A stretch of DNA of 64,000 nucleotides. Origin: Euglena gracilis. Lineage: Eukaryota. Location of the stretch: NCBI GenBank assembly GCA_039621445.1, contig CP154954.1, forward strand, positions 12,022,716 to 12,086,715, given 5' to 3'. Position 1 is the stretch's first letter. Every line of letters begins with the position of its first letter. The notes beneath the pieces were generated by a model. It was not told where the DNA came from and made no database searches. It was given only the letters and a program-made list of their open reading frames with translations. Position numbers and translations under genes: made by a program. Positions 4,201 to 63,990 of the stretch are shown here, piece after piece.

Positions 4201-4617
4201 AAACTGTGTTCACTACCCAAAGGGAACCGGACAGAAAGATCATCATACCAGATGATTGTTGAGTGTCTCCAAGGGTCGCCAACGACAGTGGGGGAGGAAT
4301 AGGGGAGGATATATGCAAACATATTGCAAACACCTCGTGGCTCGACGGCCAGGACACACTACGGACACACCGCATCACAAACATCCCAGGCATCTCCAGG
4401 GACGTTTGGGAGCACGGCGGAGGTCAGCGCACACAAAATGATAAGTGCCGTTCAGCTATTGAGGTAGGTGGTAGGGGGGTCCCAACCCCCCCCCCCACTA
4501 GGGGGGTAAGGTGGTAGGGTTTGGGTTTGGGTTTGCTTTGCCCTGCTGAAGCGCAGTGCCCACGGTCAGCAGACCCAGCATGAGCGCCAGGTCAGCTTCC
4601 GTGGGGCACACCCAGGG

Positions 4618-4904
4618 CAGGCTTCTTTTTAAGTCAGCAGCCCCCCCCCCCCCCCCCCGGGGGGGGGGGGGTTGGGTGGGTGGGTCCGGGCCGGACCCCC
4701 CCCGGGGGGGGGGGGTCCCGCGCCGGAGGCGCTGGGTATACCTTTTCGGTGCGAAGCGCCGAAAATTTTTGGAAATCGCCTTTAGCGGGCCCGATTTTTG
4801 GGGGGGTCCCGCCCCCCCCCCCCCCGAGGGGGGGTCCCGCGCCACCCTGGGTGGGTGGGGGGGACCCCCCCCCTCCCCCCCCGGGGGTCTTAAAAAGAAG
4901 CCTG
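4618..4904. mobile_element. Non-autonomous hAT-like MITE, family A
   Basis: Perfect 16-bp TIR CAGGCTTCTTTTTAAG/CTTAAAAAGAAGCCTG; exact 8-bp TSD ACCCAGGG at 4610-4617 and 4905-4912. Confidence 0.9.
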
Positions 4905-5555
4905 ACCCAGGGCCCGGGCACACTTGAACACCGGAGCAGGAAACTTTGACATCCAGCAGCCCAGCAGCCCCAGCAGAAGGCTTTAAGGGAGGGGCGGAAG
5001 CATGCCCATGAGGGCAGGCCGAGGGATGGTACAATGTGCTGCTATTGGAATGACCCAGAAATTGGGGTGGGAACACCACTGCAGTGAGGGATTCACCCAG
5101 AAGGTCAAAGACTGAACCCCGAGAGGCCGCTGGATTGGGAGGAGAAAGCACCACAGAGTGGTCAGGCAGGCCCAGAAATTTGGAGGGAGAATGTTGGACA
5201 GTTGTTAGACTGGCCCATGGCGTTGATAGGTTGAAATTAAGCGGGGACAACACGCTGTTGGCAGACAAAAAAAAGCACAGAAAAATTTGTGGTTATGGGG
5301 CTGCCCAAGTTGACGGCTGCGCTGCGGGGAGGCAGCATGTGGCTGCAGGATCTGGACCAGGTCTCATGTCTTCCGTTGAAACTGTCAAGCTTTCTGCTTT
5401 GAACTCTTTTGGGCGTACGTGCGATGCCACCCTTGTGAAAACGAGCCTGGCTGTGACTTTCAGAATGTCCCTCGCGAGAATTTTTCAGTGGATCATTTTA
5501 CCAGAAAGCAGCGAATAAAAATTGTGCCGGCGCTGTTGCCCTGTGGGGGTGGCCT

Positions 5556-6760
5556 AGACGTTCCGTTGGATGAACACCACAGACTGGTCGGACGGCCCCA
5601 GACGAAGTTCGGTTGGATGGACACCGCAGACTGGCTGCACAGCCCCAGATGAAGTTCGGTTCGATGAACACCGCAGACTGTTTGGATAGCCCCAGAAGGC
5701 GTTCCGTTCGACGAGCACCACAGACTGGTCGGACGGCCCCATAGGAAGTTCGGTTGGATGAACACCACAAACTTGTGGGATGGCCAGAAGACGTTCCGTT
5801 CGACGAACACCACAGACTGGTTGGACAGCCCCATAGGAAGTTCGGTTCGATGAACACCACAGACTGGTTGGACAGCCCCATAGGAAGTTCGGTTCGATGA
5901 ACACCACAGACTTGTTGGACGGCCCCACAGGAAGTTCGGGTCGATGAACACCACAGAATTGTTGGACAGCCCCAGACGAAGTTCGGCTCGATGAACACCA
6001 CAGACTGGTCGGACGGCACCAGAGGGCGTTCCGGTCGATGAACACCACAGACTGGTTGGACAGCCCCAGACGAAGGTCGGTTGGATGAACACCACAGACT
6101 GGTTGGACAGCCCCAGACGAAGGTCTGTTCGAAGTACACCACAGGCTGGTTTGACAGCCCCAGATGAAGTTCGGTTCGATGAACACCGCAGACTGGTTGG
6201 ACAGCCCCAGACGAAGGTCGGTTGGATGAACACCACAGACTGGTTGGACAGCCCCAGATGAAGGTCTGTTCGAAGTACACCACAGACTGGTTTGACAGCC
6301 CCAGACGAAGTTCGGCTCGATGAACACACCAGACTGGTTGGACAGCCCCAGACGAAGTTCGGTTGGATGAACACCACAGACTTGTTGGACAGCCCCAGTT
6401 GAAGTTCGGTTGGATGAACACCACAGACTGGTTGGACAGCCCCAGACGAAGGTCGGTTGGATGAACACCACAGACTGGTTGGACAGCCCCAGACGAAGGT
6501 CGGTTCGAAGTACACCACAGACTGGTTTGACAGCCCCAGATGAAGTTCGGTTCGATGAACACCGCAGACTGGTTGGACAGCCCCAGACGAAGGTCTGTTC
6601 GAAGTACACCACAGACTGGTTTGACAGCCCCAGACGAAGTTCGGCTCGATGAACACACCAGACTGGTTGGACAGCCCCAGACGAAGTTCGGTTGGATGAA
6701 CACCAGAGACTTGTTGGACAGCCCCAGTTGAAGTTCGGTTGGATGAACACCACAGACTGG
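5556..6760. repeat. 47-bp tandem minisatellite, ~25 copies
   Basis: Unit CAGACTGGTTGGACAGCCCCAGACGAAGTTCGGTTGGATGAACACCA; starts at 6001, 6048 and 6095 give a period of 47. Confidence 0.95.
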
Positions 6761-7845
6761 TGGGTAAGGTGGTAGGGGGGGGGGGTCTGGACCCCCCCCC
6801 CCAGATGTTGGGAGGGGGAGTCCGGACCCCCACCCCAGGTGCCAAAAATTGCAGAAAATTTTCTTCCGGCGCTGTGCGCAGGAAAATGAGCAAAAAACAC
6901 CCCTTTGCTCACTTTTGGACATAATGCCCATCTTTTGATGTGTTGGCGTTTTCCCCCCAAAAAATATTCAAAAAATTTCAAAAAATGAGCATTTTTGGTT
7001 TTGGGTTTTTTTAACCAATTTCGACCCGATTTCCGGCCCTTTGCCCGTCCATGGAATCGAAATTTTTCGGCCCCCCCTCAGTTTCGAGGTAGGAGGGGGG
7101 GGGGGTCCGACCCCCCCTCCGTGTCGGGGGGGGGGGGGTCCGACCCCCCCCCCAAGGCTTCCCATCCAACCCTGGTGCCGTTGGATGAGATACACGAAAC
7201 GCAATGGTAAAACCAAGGCACAGTGCGTCGTTGGACATCCAAAATGCTTTTCTCCTGTACCGCGGCCACCACCGTAATCAATTCCTCCTTGGTGAGAACG
7301 TTGTTGGATGGATGCCCCTTCCATCTAGCAGCTTCTCATCCAAAGCCTTCGCTGCCAGAGGGGCAAAGAAGGTTGTGAACTTGGAGAACTGAGAGACGGA
7401 GGAGGCCACGATTGGTGAACTGTTGCAATCTGACACCTTGTGCAAAAACACAAGGGGGTTCAGGTACGTACGGAAAGTGGAGATTGGCATGGAATGCACC
7501 CGAAAACTGGTGCCAGCCCTCTCCGTTTGTACAGCAACGCATGCCAGCCGTCAGGGTTGACGTTTTTTTGTTTTTTTTAAAAAAAACAACAAAAAAACAT
7601 GTTTTTGTGGGGAAAAACACAAAAAACATGTTTTTTTTTGAAAAAGCAAAAATTGACCTTTTTCCTTGCGAAATCGCCATTTTTGAGGAAAATTTTTCGG
7701 GGGTGGTTCGGGTCACGGGGGGGGGGGGGGTCACGGGGAACATCACATTTTCGGTGGCCAAATTAGGAATCAACGAAAACGAATTTTTTTGGGGGAAAAT
7801 CCTTTTTAGGCTCCAAATTAGGAATCCCCAAACTTAAAATTAGTA

Positions 7846-8013
7846 CCCCCCCCATATTGTCCCCCCCCCATATTGTCCCTCGGCCCCTGCCGACGGGGGG
7901 TTTTTTTGGCTCGGCCAATGAAATTCCTTTGGTACCCCCATATTGTCCCCCCCCCCCATATTGTCCGGTCGGGCCTCCCGGGGGGAGGTCGGTGGGACAA
8001 TAAGGGGGGGGGG
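7846..8013. mobile_element. TA-flanked MITE (Tc1/mariner-like TSD) nested in another repeat
   Basis: TIR Cn-ATATTGTCCC/GGGACAATAA-Gn with TA on both sides; the inverted host copy at ~2630-2675 lacks it. Confidence 0.7.
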
Positions 8014-8275
8014 TATTTTGACCCCAAATTTGGCATCACCACTCCAAATTTTGCAAAATTTATGCCTCAAAATTATTAATCTACCTGAATATTTTGTCAA
8101 ACTAGGCATCACTAGCCAAGTTATTTTTCAGAAAAAAAATGGGCCGAAAAGGGTCTCAGGTCGGGTCGGGGGGGGGGTCACAGGGGGGAACACCCCCTCT
8201 AAAGTTTTTTTTATGTGTGAAAGTGCTTCCAAATCTGTGTTTTCTGGTGCAAAAAATCATGCTTTCTGATACGAA

Positions 8276-9515
8276 AACTGTGTCCAGAACGCCGGTTCGG
8301 GCGTGAAGCCGTGTTCCAGAACGCCGGTTCGGGCGGCAGTCCGAACCGGCGTTCTGGAACACGGCTTCACGCCCGAACCGGCGTTCTGGACACAGTTGTT
8401 GAAACCGTGGATTAGGGGCTCTGGCTTCACGCCCGAACCGGCGTTCAAGGAATAAAGGCCAATTTCGCCCTAAATATCCAGTTTCTGAACATTTTTGGGC
8501 ATTTTTGGGATCCTTTGGGCTCATGGCCATGCCGATCGGCCGATTGAAGTTTTCATCCGTCTGATGCCAGGTTACCCATCAATCGAAAGGTTTTTTTTCA
8601 GAATTACGATTTGGAAAAAAATTTTGGTTGGACCACCCCTAGGTTTTTTCAGAATCACGGTTGGGAAATTTTGGCTGGACCCCCCCCAGATTTTTTCAGA
8701 TTTGCAATGCCGAATTTTCGGTTGGACCCCGCTGGTTTTTTTTTCTTCCAGAATTATGGTTGGGATTTGATCCCCCTTTTTTTCAGAATTCCGGTTCAGA
8801 AATTTTGGCTGGATTTCTTCACAAACACGGTTGAAATTTTTTTTTTGGCTGGAGCCCCCCCTAGGGTTTTTCAGAAGTACGGTTGGGAAATTTTGGCTGG
8901 CCCCCCCCCCCCCCCCGGGAATTTTTCAAAATTGTTGGGAAATGTTAATTACAGTTGGGAAATTTTGGTCCCCCTGGGTGTTTTCAAAATTGGTTGGACC
9001 CTCCCCTGGGTTTTTCAGAATTATGGTTAGGAAATTTTAGCTGGACCCCTTGGGTTTTTCAGAATTACGATTTTTGGACCCTTTTCGCAAATTCCAAAAT
9101 CCACTGTTCACCTGCCATGTTGCCCCTTGATCGATAACCCTTCTCTAGGGTTTTAGATGGCCTTAGATTTCAGGCCTGCTGCATGGTATTCTATTTCAGA
9201 AAATCCCCAGATTTGGCCAAATGGAAATTGTTGCACAAAATACCCCATTTCTGGCCAAATACCCCCCAAAAAGTGCTCAGATGTGATTGCCTCATGTCTA
9301 CAAACCATTTTGGACACTTTTTGGCACTTTTCATTTTCGGTCCCCAGGACGCCGTTTTCCCGCCCGAACCGGCGTTCTGGACACCGGTTCGGCGCAGAAA
9401 TTTCTGCGCCGAACCGGCGTCCTGGACAACGGCTCGGCGCAGAAATTTCTGCGCCGAACCAGCGTCCAGAACGCCGGTTCGGGCGTGAAGCCAGAGCCCC
9501 AATACACGGTTTCAA
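8276..9515. repeat. Palindromic GAACGCCGGTTC-based composite repeat
   Basis: Perfect 57-bp-arm hairpin at 8276-8397; ~8400-8447 is inverted relative to ~9469-9515. Confidence 0.8.
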
Positions 9516-12500
9516 CCCCAAAAAAAGACAAAAAAATGAATGCTGCAGAGATAAAAAATGAACTTTTTTCCAAAAAAACATTGCAAAAAAATTTACCCCA
9601 AACCCTCCATGACGTTTTTTTTATTAAAGAAACATGCTTTTTTTGTTTCAAAAAAAAAACAAGCCGTCAACCTTGCCAGCCGTTGCTGAGGAGTTGAGTA
9701 CAACTCCCGAGCATCAATTCACCAGCGTGCCCACCCACAAAAACAGTCATCCAACTTGGCGTGCTGTACCCCATGGGCTGCGCATACCCCGATGTATTCT
9801 GTAAAACAATTTAGGGCGGCCATTCGGTCCCAACAATAATCTTTTGCGCTTATTGACACTGTACACGTGGACTGAACACGTTTATCTGCCAAACATCCTG
9901 ATCTGAACACGTTTATTACCAATAAACGTGTTGCCCCATTTTTGTACATGTGTTCACCATTATTGCCATTTTTTGCGCGAATCACGTGGACTTGAACACG
10001 GTTTTTCACCTGACGCTGTACATTGTGTACTCTGAACATGGTTTCAAATGTGTGTCATGATCTGAAACCGCTTTTTCGGTGAAAAAGCAGTTTCAGATCA
10101 CGAAACACAAAACGTATTTCTCGAATTCAGTTTGCTGTCAACAGTGAGTGCGACAAATCCAAGGTTATTGCTTTTTGCAGATTTCCACTTCAGTATCATT
10201 TTTTAGCTTTTTGCACGATTTTTTTGGGAGGCTCCGGCAAACTCAGCATTCAAAGGACAGAGTCTGTGTCCTGTGCCGTAGACTCTGTCATGCCCGAAGC
10301 CGTGTGTCTTAAACACAGACTCCGCCCAAAGTCCATGTGCCTTAGAAACGGATTTGAAGCAAAATTCTTCCAGTGTAAGTTAAATGAAATTTCATTTTTG
10401 AAATTAAATTCATAATTTTCGGCCCATTTCCCATTATTATTTCCCATTTCCGTTAAAAAAAATTTGTAGCCCTTCAAGTAGCAGTTGCCGAAGTCAATCT
10501 CATGGATCTCATGAAGGATGACATTAAGCAATGAGAAATGAACAAAAACGAAGTCAGAAGAAAGTGTCTGGCAAGAGTTGCAAGAGATGTGTGATTATAT
10601 ATGGTGCCTTGCCGTCATCATTAATTTCCAAAAACAGTTTGGGAATGAATTTTTTGAGCGGGCTTGGTTTTTTGACCCACCGCCATTCTGAATTTTGCAA
10701 TGTGAAATTCAAGAAGTGAAACATGCTGTTGCCTAAGTTTTATTCAACTGGGGCAAGATTTGCAAAGACAGGGGGCAAAAATTTTGACAACTTGGTCAGA
10801 ATTTTGTTTGGAAAGGTGCAATTCTTCAATTTTTTTTTTGGTACAGCAGCAACCCAGTTTGGGACGGGGGCACATATTTGTGTAGCTACAAATACGAACC
10901 ATGTAGCTCTACACTGACGATGTTTGTTCTTTTGCGTGCTTCTCTTTGCCTTGTGCACCTCCACATATACACATGATCAATGCCCGCTTCTGTGCTTGTA
11001 CACACCAGGCTTTTGCTTCAGGGATTGCAGTACCCCCCCCGGGGGGGGGGGGGGCTGGACTGCAGCTAGTCCTGATTTGGCTGGTGGGATTTCTAGCAGA
11101 CCTGTCTGCTGGCAGCGCTAACTAGTGGAACTTTTTTTCCAGTGACCGGTGCGAAGCGCCGGAAAATTGCCAAAAATGCCCGTTTTTGGCCATTATTGGG
11201 AATTTTTGGAACAAAATCATCCAAAAAACATTAAAAACCTCATTTTCACCTCGGCGCACAGCGCCGAAGGGAAGGGATTTTTTTTACAGTTGGGGGGACC
11301 CCCGGACCCCCCAACGACGGAGGGGGGTCTAGCTAGTCCATTTTTTCCAGTGTCCAGCCAGTACCCCCCGGGCAAGAAAAAGCCTTAAGCAAAAGCCTGG
11401 TACACACGCGCGCACATGTGTGTGCACGCGGATGTGTGAGCGCACATGTGTGTGCACGCGGATGTGTGAGCGCGCATGCGTGTGTGCGTGCGTGCGTGCG
11501 TGCGTGCGTGTGTTCTTTTCCTCGTTTGATCATTTTGATCAGGGGCATTGGCTACGCTATACCAGCAAGTGGCCAACGCTCATGGAGCAGACATTCACTT
11601 GTTTTTGATGGATTCTTGAGAGGGGGGGGGGCGAGACTGAGAATTCATCGGCGTGACATGTGTGAAGAATGAATTTTTTCTCCACGCGTTGGACGATAGT
11701 TTGTTGCCCAAAGGGCAAGATGGTCGGCAAGACTTCTTGGTCAATTTTGGGTTGAACAAGTGAGGCAAGACCTTGACAGGATGATCCTCCCATGTGTCAA
11801 TAATTTTAATTAATTAATGTGTTTGCTCCAACCCGAGGCGGGGACTACGGCACCGAAGGTGCCGTGTTGCCCCCGCGCCATCCTAAAAATTTGGCCAAAG
11901 CACTGTTCTTGGTCTGTAAAATCCCGTGGTCAATGGTATGCAACGCGGGGGGGATTGATTCTGCGGTTTTCCCGCAATTTCCGATTTCCCCCCCAATTCT
12001 CCCGCAATTTGCAAATTTTTTTCACAGTTTGTTTCTCAGTTTTTTTTCCCTTCCGCTATTTTCCCGCATGAACCTGAAACGAAAAGGGGAATGGGCTTTG
12101 TAACTTTTTGAACGCTTCACAAACAAGCGGAAGAACAGGTGCTTTGTTGTTGTTGCAATTGCCAGAATTTGCCAAATTTTACAAATCTTGACTTTTTTTT
12201 GTGTTTTTTTTTTCAGCCAACAAATTCCATATTTCTAAAAATTAAGAAAATTCCCAAAGTCACAAAAATCAGGTTTTTTGTTGCATTTTTTTGACTTTTT
12301 TTGTTGGAAAATGTGTGAGTGTAACAACTCAAACCGCACAGAATGGCAAATTTGTTAACTTTTTCAAATTCCCCTGCAGCAGAAGTGTACATATTCCCAA
12401 ATGCACAGTTTCCGCATTTTTCCGCATTTTTTCCTGCAATTTCCGCAATTCTATGCAATTTTTCTCCAGGCCAATTACCCCCCCCCCCCCGCTGCAACGG

Positions 12501-13718
12501 GGATAAGCTCTCCACCATTTGAGTTTCCCATTGGCCTTACTTCAAAAAATTGGACTTTTCTGCTGTGCATTTGGGTTTCCCATCGAAATTTCGGGCTGAA
12601 TTTCGGGCTGTCAAAGAAAAGAGGCACTTTGTGCAGAATTTCTGGGGGAACCCACCCTTCTGTTCGTGTGAGAGGTTTCATAAAATGCATGCAAGTCTAC
12701 AGAATCTTACTTTCAAAAAATAAGCAACAAAAAAAACTGAGAAATGTCCCCCGCCCTGAAGAAAAAAAACCGAGTCCACGACTCCCCTCCGTACGCCTCC
12801 CCTCCGTGGAAGTTCGCCTCACCAAATGAAAGGAAACAAAAGCAAAGGCACTTCCTGAAACAGCAAGAAATGCCAAAAGAGAAAAGGACAGGAGTGGACC
12901 CCTCCCTTAAACCAAATCCAAATTCCCAATTACTGATTCCAAAATTAAAAAAAGCCAAAAAGTCCACACCTTGGCTTTTGACCAAACATTCGCCAGACAA
13001 TTTTTTTCTGAGGCAATAAAATTTTGGCAAGCAATAAAGCTGCCCCACATGAGCTCCAGATCTCAAATGCGGAATCAACCTTCAACAAAACTTAAAACAT
13101 CAGAAAGCTACGTTGCCAAGAACCCATAAATATTTTTTTGTTCTTCCAGTGGAATGCTTGTGAGGAGAAAATGGTTATTGTAATATTTAATAAATATATA
13201 ATAATATAGATATTAAATATAGATATTATCATTAAGTTTACAAATATATTATATAAAAGAAACGTTAGTCCTGCCAACAAAAGAAATGTTTGTGTTCACT
13301 TGTGGGGGCAGTTCCCCTGTGTCCCCTGGCCCCTGACCTCCTGGCCCCCTGACCTCTCTGTGACCTTGGCAGTGGAGCAGTCGGCGTCTCCCGCCTCCTG
13401 TCGGGGTATCTGTGCAAAATAGCACTCAAAGCCCAAAAGATGAAAAACAAAATACAAGCGATGAAGTTCTCTTCAAAAAATGTAAGAAAAGGTGGAGAAT
13501 AGTCAACCCAAGGCATCTTGTGCATTTGCTTCCACATGAGCTCTTTGATGAGTTTCGATGGGATGGTGCTTAACTCATGAAGATTGTGCCAAGGGGGGGG
13601 TCCAGCCAGAACCTTTCTTCCAGCGAGCACCTTTCTCCAGCCGGCCCGCCCCCCCCCCCCCCGGGTCGTCGTTTGATAAACCCTTGTTTGAGAGAATTCT
13701 GAATGGTTGCCTGTCATG

Positions 13719-63990
<50,272 letters not shown>

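Follow-up and report, generated by a model that had tools for sequence, protein, structure and literature searches.

What is the source of the nonconventional introns of euglenids, a question discussed since the 1990s, is raised anew by a stretch of 64,000 nucleotides of Euglena gracilis (contig CP154954.1 of GenBank assembly GCA_039621445.1, forward-strand positions 12,022,716 to 12,086,715; hereafter the window). In this window a gene interrupted by such introns lies beside short transposable elements with 8-bp target-site duplications (TSDs). An origin from miniature transposable elements with inverted repeats (MITEs) was proposed in 2013 (Milanowski 2013), and in 2018 the transposon theory was still put as a question in the portion of text drawn on here (PMC6221363). 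A first-pass annotation of the window, made from its letters alone, had read the introns as insertions of hAT-like MITEs whose splicing takes away exactly one 8-bp TSD. The present analysis supports that interpretation in part: the introns look like insertions of MITEs with 8-bp TSDs and CAG...CTG ends, and the splice geometry removes exactly one TSD equivalent.

Exact 8-bp duplications flank 12 elements in the window (Table 1), and every duplicated 8-mer is different. All 12 start with CA and finish with TG or CG; nine start with CAGG and three with CAA or CAT. The four MITEs named in the first-pass annotation (4618, 47798, 48311 and 52531) were found as described, with their exact TSDs. They are non-coding and 250-300 bp long, with inverted ends CAG(G)...(C)CTG except for one CAA start and one CCG finish, and the flanks of 4618-4904 are non-coding by codon score. 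The TSD of 52531-52799 is weak evidence because the element sits inside a CCCA repeat. The original list was real as far as it went; it missed 11006-11399, 17064-17109, 45760-46059, 63001-63078, 25041-25318 (7/8) and the intron 53155-53559 (8/8). The weakest member is 17064-17109, which has a terminal inverted repeat (TIR) of merely 5 bp and could have arisen by chance.

The 8-bp flank repeats as a class are beyond chance, as evident from their length distribution. An inverted-repeat search was carried out for perfect pairs of at least 5 bp that start with CAG and lie 40-3000 bp apart, and the flanks of the 4542 pairs obtained were scored for direct repeats. Exact flank repeats numbered 341, 100, 24 and 7 at lengths of 2, 3, 4 and 5 bp, respectively, 0 at 6 and at 7 bp, 9 at 8 bp, 0 at 9-13 bp and 2 at 14 bp. 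When the downstream 8-mer was displaced by -3 to +5 bases, each of the eight wrong registers gave 0 exact 8-mers, as compared to 9 in the true register, and the same pattern was recorded for arms of 6 bp (6 vs 0) and 7 bp (4 vs 0). The imperfect classes were not clearly above the shifted controls (2 vs 0-6 for 7/8 matches and 39 vs 15-33 for 6/8 matches).

The elements fall into at least three families. Family A, characterized by G/C-rich arms around a TTTTCGG..CCGAAAA core, comprises the four MITEs named above, two degenerate copies (near 17753 and 29655) and two fragments (28613 and 39122); 4618-4904 and 52538-52799 are 85% identical over 281 bp. An exact 24-mer of this family gave 0 matches in a metagenome scan. 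A degenerate form of its core motif, which is a generic hairpin, was found there at 120 loci, none of them like the MITEs or intron elements of the window (0 BLAST matches, E<=1e-6). Family B consists of the copy at 11006 and a partial one in inverted orientation, whose end is at 58090. Three copies, 45760-46059, 63001-63078 and 21435-21665, make up family C; the last of them coincides with a putative intron. The 78-bp copy 63001-63078 aligns to 45760-46059 with a score of 55 (shuffles 17.0±2.4, 0/200). For 21435-21665 against 45760-46059, a local score of 38 was obtained, as compared to 19.0±2.6 for dinucleotide shuffles (0/200); 31 real intron or element controls scored 27 or less, and 4/976 random window segments attained 38. 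The corresponding global-type score of 64.4 exceeds that of random window segments (19.6±7.2, maximum 40.4). The similarity of 21435-21665 to the 78-bp copy alone is not significant, its score being attained by 30/200 shuffles. By these alignment scores, two MITEs that lie outside exons are homologues of the putative intron 21432-21670.

The remaining intron-like elements were also compared to the three families. No significant match to family A, B or C was obtained for 63273-63910, 59222-59417 or 31104-31262. Membership of 43678-44050 in family A or B was rejected, its scores of 33-40 lying within or just over those of real-intron controls (38 for A and 40 for B). Intron 11 of the gene described below was likewise rejected as a member of family A, since its scores of 35-50 (real-intron controls up to 38) are due to G/C runs.

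The splice geometry was examined on a gene for an IQ/B-box protein in the right-hand part of the window, whose model is based on a transcript-derived protein, P0004 (eukprot EG_transcript_177), the database name of which identifies the window as probable Euglena nuclear DNA. This protein of 980 aa, with IQ and B-box domains, was found by exon query, and its exons match the window at 100% save one residue. The length of each of the 27 introns is fixed, and every junction position compatible with the protein was listed. Two of the 27 introns can be GT-AG; for the other 25 none of the junctions compatible with the protein allows GY-AG, which makes them nonconventional. Strict CAG at +4..+6 together with CTG at -8..-6 occurs in 7 of these 25, including the introns at 59219 and 63270. 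Unlike the CAG/CTG ends ascribed earlier to the named introns, those of the element 31104-31262 are CAAGC...GCATG.

Perfect end helices of at least 5 bp that leave 8 nt in total outside are possible in 10/27 introns, as compared to 0, 2, 0, 3, 0, 1, 2 and 1 introns for totals of 0, 1, 2, 3, 4, 5, 6 and 7 nt, respectively; the larger even totals count these helices again, starting one pair deeper. When the two spacers were varied independently over a 9x11 grid for the 25 nonconventional introns, with G-U pairs permitted and the helix required to begin at the given spacers, the maximum fell at (3,5), i.e. with the outermost pair 3 nt from the 5' junction and 5 nt from the 3' junction (8/25 introns). 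The diagonal of spacers summing to 8 is enriched, reflecting sliding ambiguity, and (3,6) spacers are also present, as in the published '5-6'. In the clean in-register introns 3, 4, 13, 20, 21, 24 and 27, the 5' spacers allowed by the protein, intersected by hand, share only the value 3. The window by itself reproduces the published 3-nt and 5-nt spacers, and the equality of their sum with the TSD length, which the first-pass annotation had pointed out, holds. The best end helix of intron 23 (60894-61538), CTGGCTG...CAGCCAG, leaves 3+3 nt outside (total 6) with CTG on the 5' side, and misfits the 3+5 rule.

RNA folding places the MITEs in the same geometry. When folded together with the adjoining 3 nt on the 5' side and 5 nt on the 3' side, most of them give a terminal helix from +4/-6, with a length of 16, 14, 12 and 12 bp for 4618, 47798, 11006 and 45760, respectively. 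No such helix was obtained for 48311 and 52531, the end bases of which deviate. The validated introns 3, 13, 20, 21 and 24 form the same +4/-6 helix with 6-8 bp.

The identity of the intron flanks was also determined by comparing the last 5 exon and first 3 intron nucleotides with the last 5 intron and first 3 exon nucleotides, the register being picked by helix length alone among the protein-compatible junctions. This check, suggested in the first-pass annotation and run here within the window, gave 90/200 identical positions in 25 introns, as compared to 63.9±6.1 for permuted partners (0/10000 attain 90); windows shifted by 8-24 nt gave 50-66/200. The excess persists on removal of intron 11 (82/192 vs 60.6±5.9 permuted, 0/10000). 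Individual introns have 1-8 matches, with 8 in one intron, 6 in two, 5 in two and at most 2 in six. The intron with all eight matches is intron 11 (53155-53559), a transcript-backed intron with an intact TSD, across whose junction P0004 reads ...AWAAGRE/QMVL. The 6/8 repeats claimed for the introns at 59219 and 63270 (introns 20 and 27) are present, and both introns are backed by the transcript-derived protein. In intron 20 the protein requires that flank position 2 be taken from the upstream copy and position 8 from the downstream one, and in intron 27 a Lys (AAG) puts position 6 in the downstream copy; both introns fit a 5/3 junction. By the 3+5 rule intron 27 ends at 63915, and position 63918, the last of the range given in the first-pass annotation, closes the second repeat copy.

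Three further introns with exact 8-bp repeats had been named upstream of this gene, at 21432-21670, 31101-31267 and 43675-44055, and the repeats are all present. Their intron status was assessed by frame continuity and by a codon log-odds score trained on the 28 exons versus the introns of the P0004 gene (exons 1.12±0.44; open 30-codon intron segments -0.91±0.41, 0.8% of these >0.3). Removal of 167 nt at the 31104 element restores one frame with an exon-like score of 1.20 and the IQ-like LLQRVWRAYTAWR. Removal of 381 nt at the 43678 element gives joined flanks with a score of 1.02 and a junction reading ...HTAARSIQARYRGRLVR, like the repeated IQ pattern of the gene. At the 21435 element, removal of 239 nt joins two open frames with a score of 0.47, a value within the range of exons that exceeds those of ~99% of open intron segments. 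The same test on the eight non-exonic MITEs gave negative scores or no open frame. These values indicate that 31101-31267 and 43675-44055 are very probably introns and that 21432-21670 is probably one; all three would then be spliced. Family C has a copy in coding-like flanks. Transcript-protein searches with 44052-44270 and 40448-40765 gave no match, and a representative protein search with 21247-21429 gave 7 weak low-complexity matches, none of them identical.

Four of the 12 exact-TSD elements are whole introns or putative introns, and 8 are not. A pyrimidine followed by a purine occupies TSD positions 5 and 6 in 4/4 of the former and in 2/8 of the others (hypergeometric p ~0.03, by hand), which fits the published need for a purine at the start of the acceptor exon. 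The whole-intron share of 4/12, as compared to an exon share of ~14% of the mapped gene, suggests that exonic insertions are not depleted.

Taken as a whole, these observations are probably best explained by MITE insertions with 8-bp TSDs that become nonconventional introns through a 3+5 cut. Non-autonomous cut-and-paste transposons of at least three families, with ends CAG(G)...(C)CTG, would duplicate 8 bp of the target on insertion. A non-spliceosomal splicing machinery would recognise the helix formed by the inverted ends, with its cuts placed outside this helix: upstream of the 5' arm by 3 nt and downstream of the 3' arm by 5 nt. As these spacers add up to 8 (3+5=8), the transcript of an insertion would lose the element and one 8-nt equivalent, leaving the original exon sequence. 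An exonic insertion would thus act as an intron from the start, provided that the duplicated 8-mer has a pyrimidine and a purine at positions 5 and 6. In older introns of this type the flanks would no longer be identical and much of the inverted repeat would be gone, and we infer that most nonconventional introns are so derived. Splicing on arrival is made plausible by knock-ins of artificial introns at a foreign locus, in which, according to part of the published text, paired ends with CAG and CTG, spacers of 3 nt before and 5 nt after them, and a purine at the exon start were sufficient (PNAS 2025, PMC12501133).

Several observations weigh against this explanation. The counts are small throughout and come from one 64-kb window. 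No transcript protein matched over 21-44 kb in the above searches, and the exact-TSD introns are putative in three of four cases, the sole family-linked one among these, with frame continuity and codon score as their basis. The fourth, intron 11, resembles the MITE families of the window in G/C runs but not significantly otherwise. Two exact-TSD introns (elements 31104 and 53158) end in CAA/CAT...ATG and not in CAG...CTG, and 18/25 transcript-backed introns deviate from strict CAG/CTG, with variants such as CAA, CGG and CAT, or are unclear. A clean (3,5) helix is found in just 8/25 introns, and the mean flank identity is just 45%, with 6/25 introns at or below 2/8. Identity at -1/+1 could partly stem from a mechanistic pyrimidine-purine preference at both junctions; the permuted partners control composition. 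Pfam matched no family and no transposase among the 19 long open reading frames (ORFs) of the window.

An account that makes the agreement accidental would treat 3+5 as a property of the splicing enzyme, the border repeats as products of break repair at intron gain, and the MITEs as ordinary elements that merely happen to be intronic. Such a reading was given in 2016 to a recently gained, strain-specific gapC intron of E. agilis, whose 'eight nucleotide direct repeats' were taken, in the text drawn on, as a footprint of double-strand-break repair (Milanowski et al., PMC4770533). It also accords with the exact-TSD MITEs that are not whole introns (8/12) and with the introns that lack strict CAG/CTG. 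It would, however, need four chance agreements, namely in the end bases, the inverted-repeat architecture, the number 8 and the flank identity confined to one register. Furthermore, 21435-21665 is homologous to two copies outside exons that have different 8-bp TSDs of their own, which is a signature of transposition and not of local repair, and we consider repair plus coincidence quite unlikely. The direction of events could also be reversed, the apparent MITEs being excised intron RNAs, or circles, that were copied back or reverse-spliced, with the 8 nt supplied by the splicing geometry. Excision of nonconventional introns is reported to yield full-length circles, and the excised RNA would hold the element plus 8 nt (cited in the portions used of PMC11282704 and PMC12501133). 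A re-inserted intron would bring the 8 nt of its donor and create no new target duplication, whereas the duplicated 8-mer is exact and differs from one family copy to the next (in family C GCCATGTG, ACCACCAC and CTTCTTTG), and reverse insertion of intron RNA is rejected because of this. The long perfect TIRs of 12-16 bp are moreover typical of transposase substrates, making the reversed order extremely improbable.

The insertion mechanism may also be correct with a mobilising transposase other than hAT. The label hAT-like, which falls short of proving the superfamily, is based on two features of the elements, the 8-bp TSD and the CAG...CTG ends (CAG starts in 9/12); short TIRs starting with CAG together with 8-bp TSDs are the classical hAT combination, and non-autonomous hAT MITEs likewise measure a few hundred bp. 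The target preference of hAT, with T and A at positions 2 and 7, respectively, is at most weak in the 12 exact TSDs (T in 5/12, p=0.15; A in 6/12, p=0.03). The Pfam result on the 19 ORFs and the CAA/CAT...ATG ends of 31104 and 53158 also speak for another superfamily with 8-bp TSDs. P and Mutator-like elements are candidates of this kind. Merlin is another, two families with 8-bp TSDs, intact DDE motifs and a conserved terminal GG being described for the E. gracilis assembly in part of the source text (PMC8101967). Merlin shares the organism and the TSD length with the window elements, but differs in its terminal GG and encoded transposase (PMC8101967, same portion). The window elements are non-coding with CA...TG ends, and the TSD register bars moving these ends inward. 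The terminal-GG feature is absent from all 12 elements, which start with CA and end in TG or CG. We infer a hAT-type transposase, and a source in Merlin or another superfamily appears unlikely.

The coordinates of the elements and of the gene are collected in Table 1. Besides the MITEs listed there as nested in introns 3, 4, 10 and 26, the family B fragment lies in nonconventional intron 18.

Table 1. Elements with 8-bp duplications, related intron cores and the transcript-backed gene in the window
Feature	Position	Strand	TSD or flanks	Ends and TIR	Context
MITE, family A	4618..4904		ACCCAGGG (4610-4617 and 4905-4912)	16-bp perfect TIR starting CAGGC	
MITE, family B	11006..11399		GTACACAC	13-bp perfect TIR starting CAGGC	
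Mini-element, 46 bp	17064..17109		CCTGGGCA	CAGGC...GCCTG	
Family C element	21435..21665	+	GCCATGTG		putative nonconventional intron 21432-21670
Element	25041..25318		TACAAGCA / GACAAGCA (7/8)	8-bp TIR CAGGAAGG...	
Element	31104..31262	+	GTGGCGGG	CAAGCACCTATG and CATAGGTGCATG; TIR 11/12	putative intron 31101-31267
Element	43678..44050	+	CATCCAGG	CAGGC...GCCTG	putative intron 43675-44055
IQ/B-box protein gene	44603..63990	+			28 exons = residues 1-877 of P0004; 27 introns
MITE, family C, full length	45760..46059		ACCACCAC	12-bp perfect TIR starting CAGGGCGGTCCT	within nonconventional intron 3 (45551-46318)
MITE, family A	47798..48097		GTTCCAAC	14-bp TIR	within intron 4 (46505-48640)
MITE, family A	48311..48561		CTTCCGAC	CAGGG...CCCCG	within intron 4
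MITE, family A	52531..52799		CCACCCAC	start CAAGC	within intron 10 (52374-53018)
Element	53158..53554	+	GCCGCGAG (exact)	CATCGATTCACT...AGTGAACCTATG; TIR 11/16	transcript-backed nonconventional intron 11 (53155-53559, 3+5 register)
Intron core	59222..59417	+	CACGTGGA / CGCGTGGT (6/8)	8-bp perfect TIR CAGGGCTG	transcript-backed intron 20 (59219-59422)
Family C internal-deletion derivative, 78 bp	63001..63078		CTTCTTTG		within intron 26 (62681-63196)
Intron core	63273..63910	+	GCGGTGAG / GCGGCAAG (6/8)	CAGGC...GCCTG	transcript-backed intron 27 (63270-63915)

The single residue difference between P0004 and the window, at 63949-63951, is a Thr in the transcript protein and an Ala in the window, which suggests another allele or strain. 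The frame of the first P0004 exon stays open upstream of the Met (44324-44647, with ...EEREPFDR before MPIAKEE), and exons with IQ motifs occur on the same strand at ~31.2, 41.2 and 44.05 kb. The database protein is therefore probably truncated at its N-terminus, and the gene may begin at least 15 kb further upstream. Micro-exons are also present, one of ~12-21 nt between introns 11 and 12 (53563-53574, GREQMVL with sliding) and two of 30 nt (50916-50945 and 54802-54831), all bordered by nonconventional introns.

The window contains other repeats as well. Most of the space between the 12-bp inverted ends of the putative intron 31101-31267 is filled by an 11-bp tandem repeat, GGCGTGACTGG, in ~10 copies (31125-31232). 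A further repeat family of ~110-120 bp, with copies up to 96% identical, occurs at 26112-26280, 37852-38032, 38650-38746, 48847-48968 and 59538-59582, i.e. in introns 5 and 21 and upstream. Its palindromic arms consist of a C-run followed by GGGAAACTGTCA, with the reverse complement at the opposite end, and its ends are not CAG...CTG. A 47-bp tandem array at 5560-6761 (25.6 copies, 85% identity) gives spurious minus-strand ORFs of ~500 aa. Very long tetranucleotide microsatellites lie at 32043-32624, 49275-49885 (intron 5), 55360-56038 (intron 15) and 37139-37330, with the units CACA x146, ACAC x153, TATG x170 and CACG x48, two of them inside nonconventional introns.

Insertion of transposons as ready-made introns has parallels in other eukaryotes. 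In Micromonas and Aureococcus, Huff, Zilberman and Roy reportedly described in 2016 introners that are DNA transposon insertions and introns on arrival, the TSD helping exact excision. The likeness to the present case reportedly extends to the TSD being part of the exact excision; those introners are reportedly spliceosomal, the element bringing one splice site and the TSD the other, whereas in Euglena the splicing is non-spliceosomal, is measured from the TIR helix, and has the TSD equal to 3+5. A precedent for the removal of Ds, a hAT element, from mRNA is reportedly given by the Ds-derived introns of maize (Giroux, 1994, as cited in PMC3935182), which use cryptic spliceosomal sites and are removed imprecisely, unlike the exact removal by a dedicated code in Euglena. 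The introner elements of Amoebophrya are, in the part of the source drawn on, non-canonical introns with 8-20-nt inverted repeats forming a hairpin and direct repeats overlapping the borders, and are called MITE-like (PMC7789003). Their direct repeats are variable and of 3-5 nt, just 10-31% of the introner elements are assigned to putative MITE families and no fixed cut is described, as compared to 8 nt and a fixed 3+5 cut in Euglena (PMC7789003, same part). The first-pass annotation had called the Euglena case an introner system. In the strict sense, with many near-identical intron copies in unrelated genes, this does not hold for the window: the proposed clustering of introns with MITEs, run within it, brought the putative intron 21432-21670 into family C, which has one putative intron copy and two non-exonic ones, and no family yields two introns.

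Published accounts of euglenid nonconventional introns describe, in the portions of text used, the same features as found here: non-GT-AG borders, CAG at +4..+6 and CTG at -8..-6, an end helix, 3/5-nt spacers, an acceptor purine, border repeats and a proposed MITE-like origin (PMC12501133, PMC11282704). A 2024 review in Mobile DNA labels the CAG/CTG as 'TIR' and the border repeats as 'TSD-like' (PMC11282704). In E. agilis, nonconventional introns make up ~70% of all introns, 84.4% of introns are 'slidable' via border repeats, and the origin 'remains unclear', in the wording of the portion cited (PMC12501133). These accounts, in the same portions, do not equate 3+5 with a TSD, whereas the window has, beside the introns, MITEs that lie outside exons, share the intron ends and carry 8-bp TSDs. 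Within the running text of the nonconventional-intron papers drawn on, with figures and supplements outside this scope, an 8-bp TSD, hAT or any superfamily, MITE families and 3+5=8 were not found, and dedicated full-text searches likewise gave no statement of an 8-bp TSD, of hAT or of 3+5=8; Fig. 1B of PMC12501133 may bear on this.

The finding extends the published hypothesis of a MITE origin rather than founding a new one, and makes it precise and testable. It is sharpened in that source elements exist outside exons, the duplications measure 8 bp, and the 3-nt and 5-nt spacers would be the two parts of the duplication. Such an origin would explain the common border repeats, the eight-nucleotide repeats of the new intron and the frequent, harmless gain of introns in this lineage, and it predicts that insertions are tolerated where the sixth base of the duplicated 8-mer is a purine. 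More tentatively, and with somewhat less than even confidence, nonconventional splicing may be a transposon-erasing device tuned to hAT-like elements with 8-bp TSDs, most such introns being fossil insertions, and the pyrimidine and purine at positions 5 and 6 letting the exonic ones survive. If true, Euglena would have the first introner system to work without the spliceosome.

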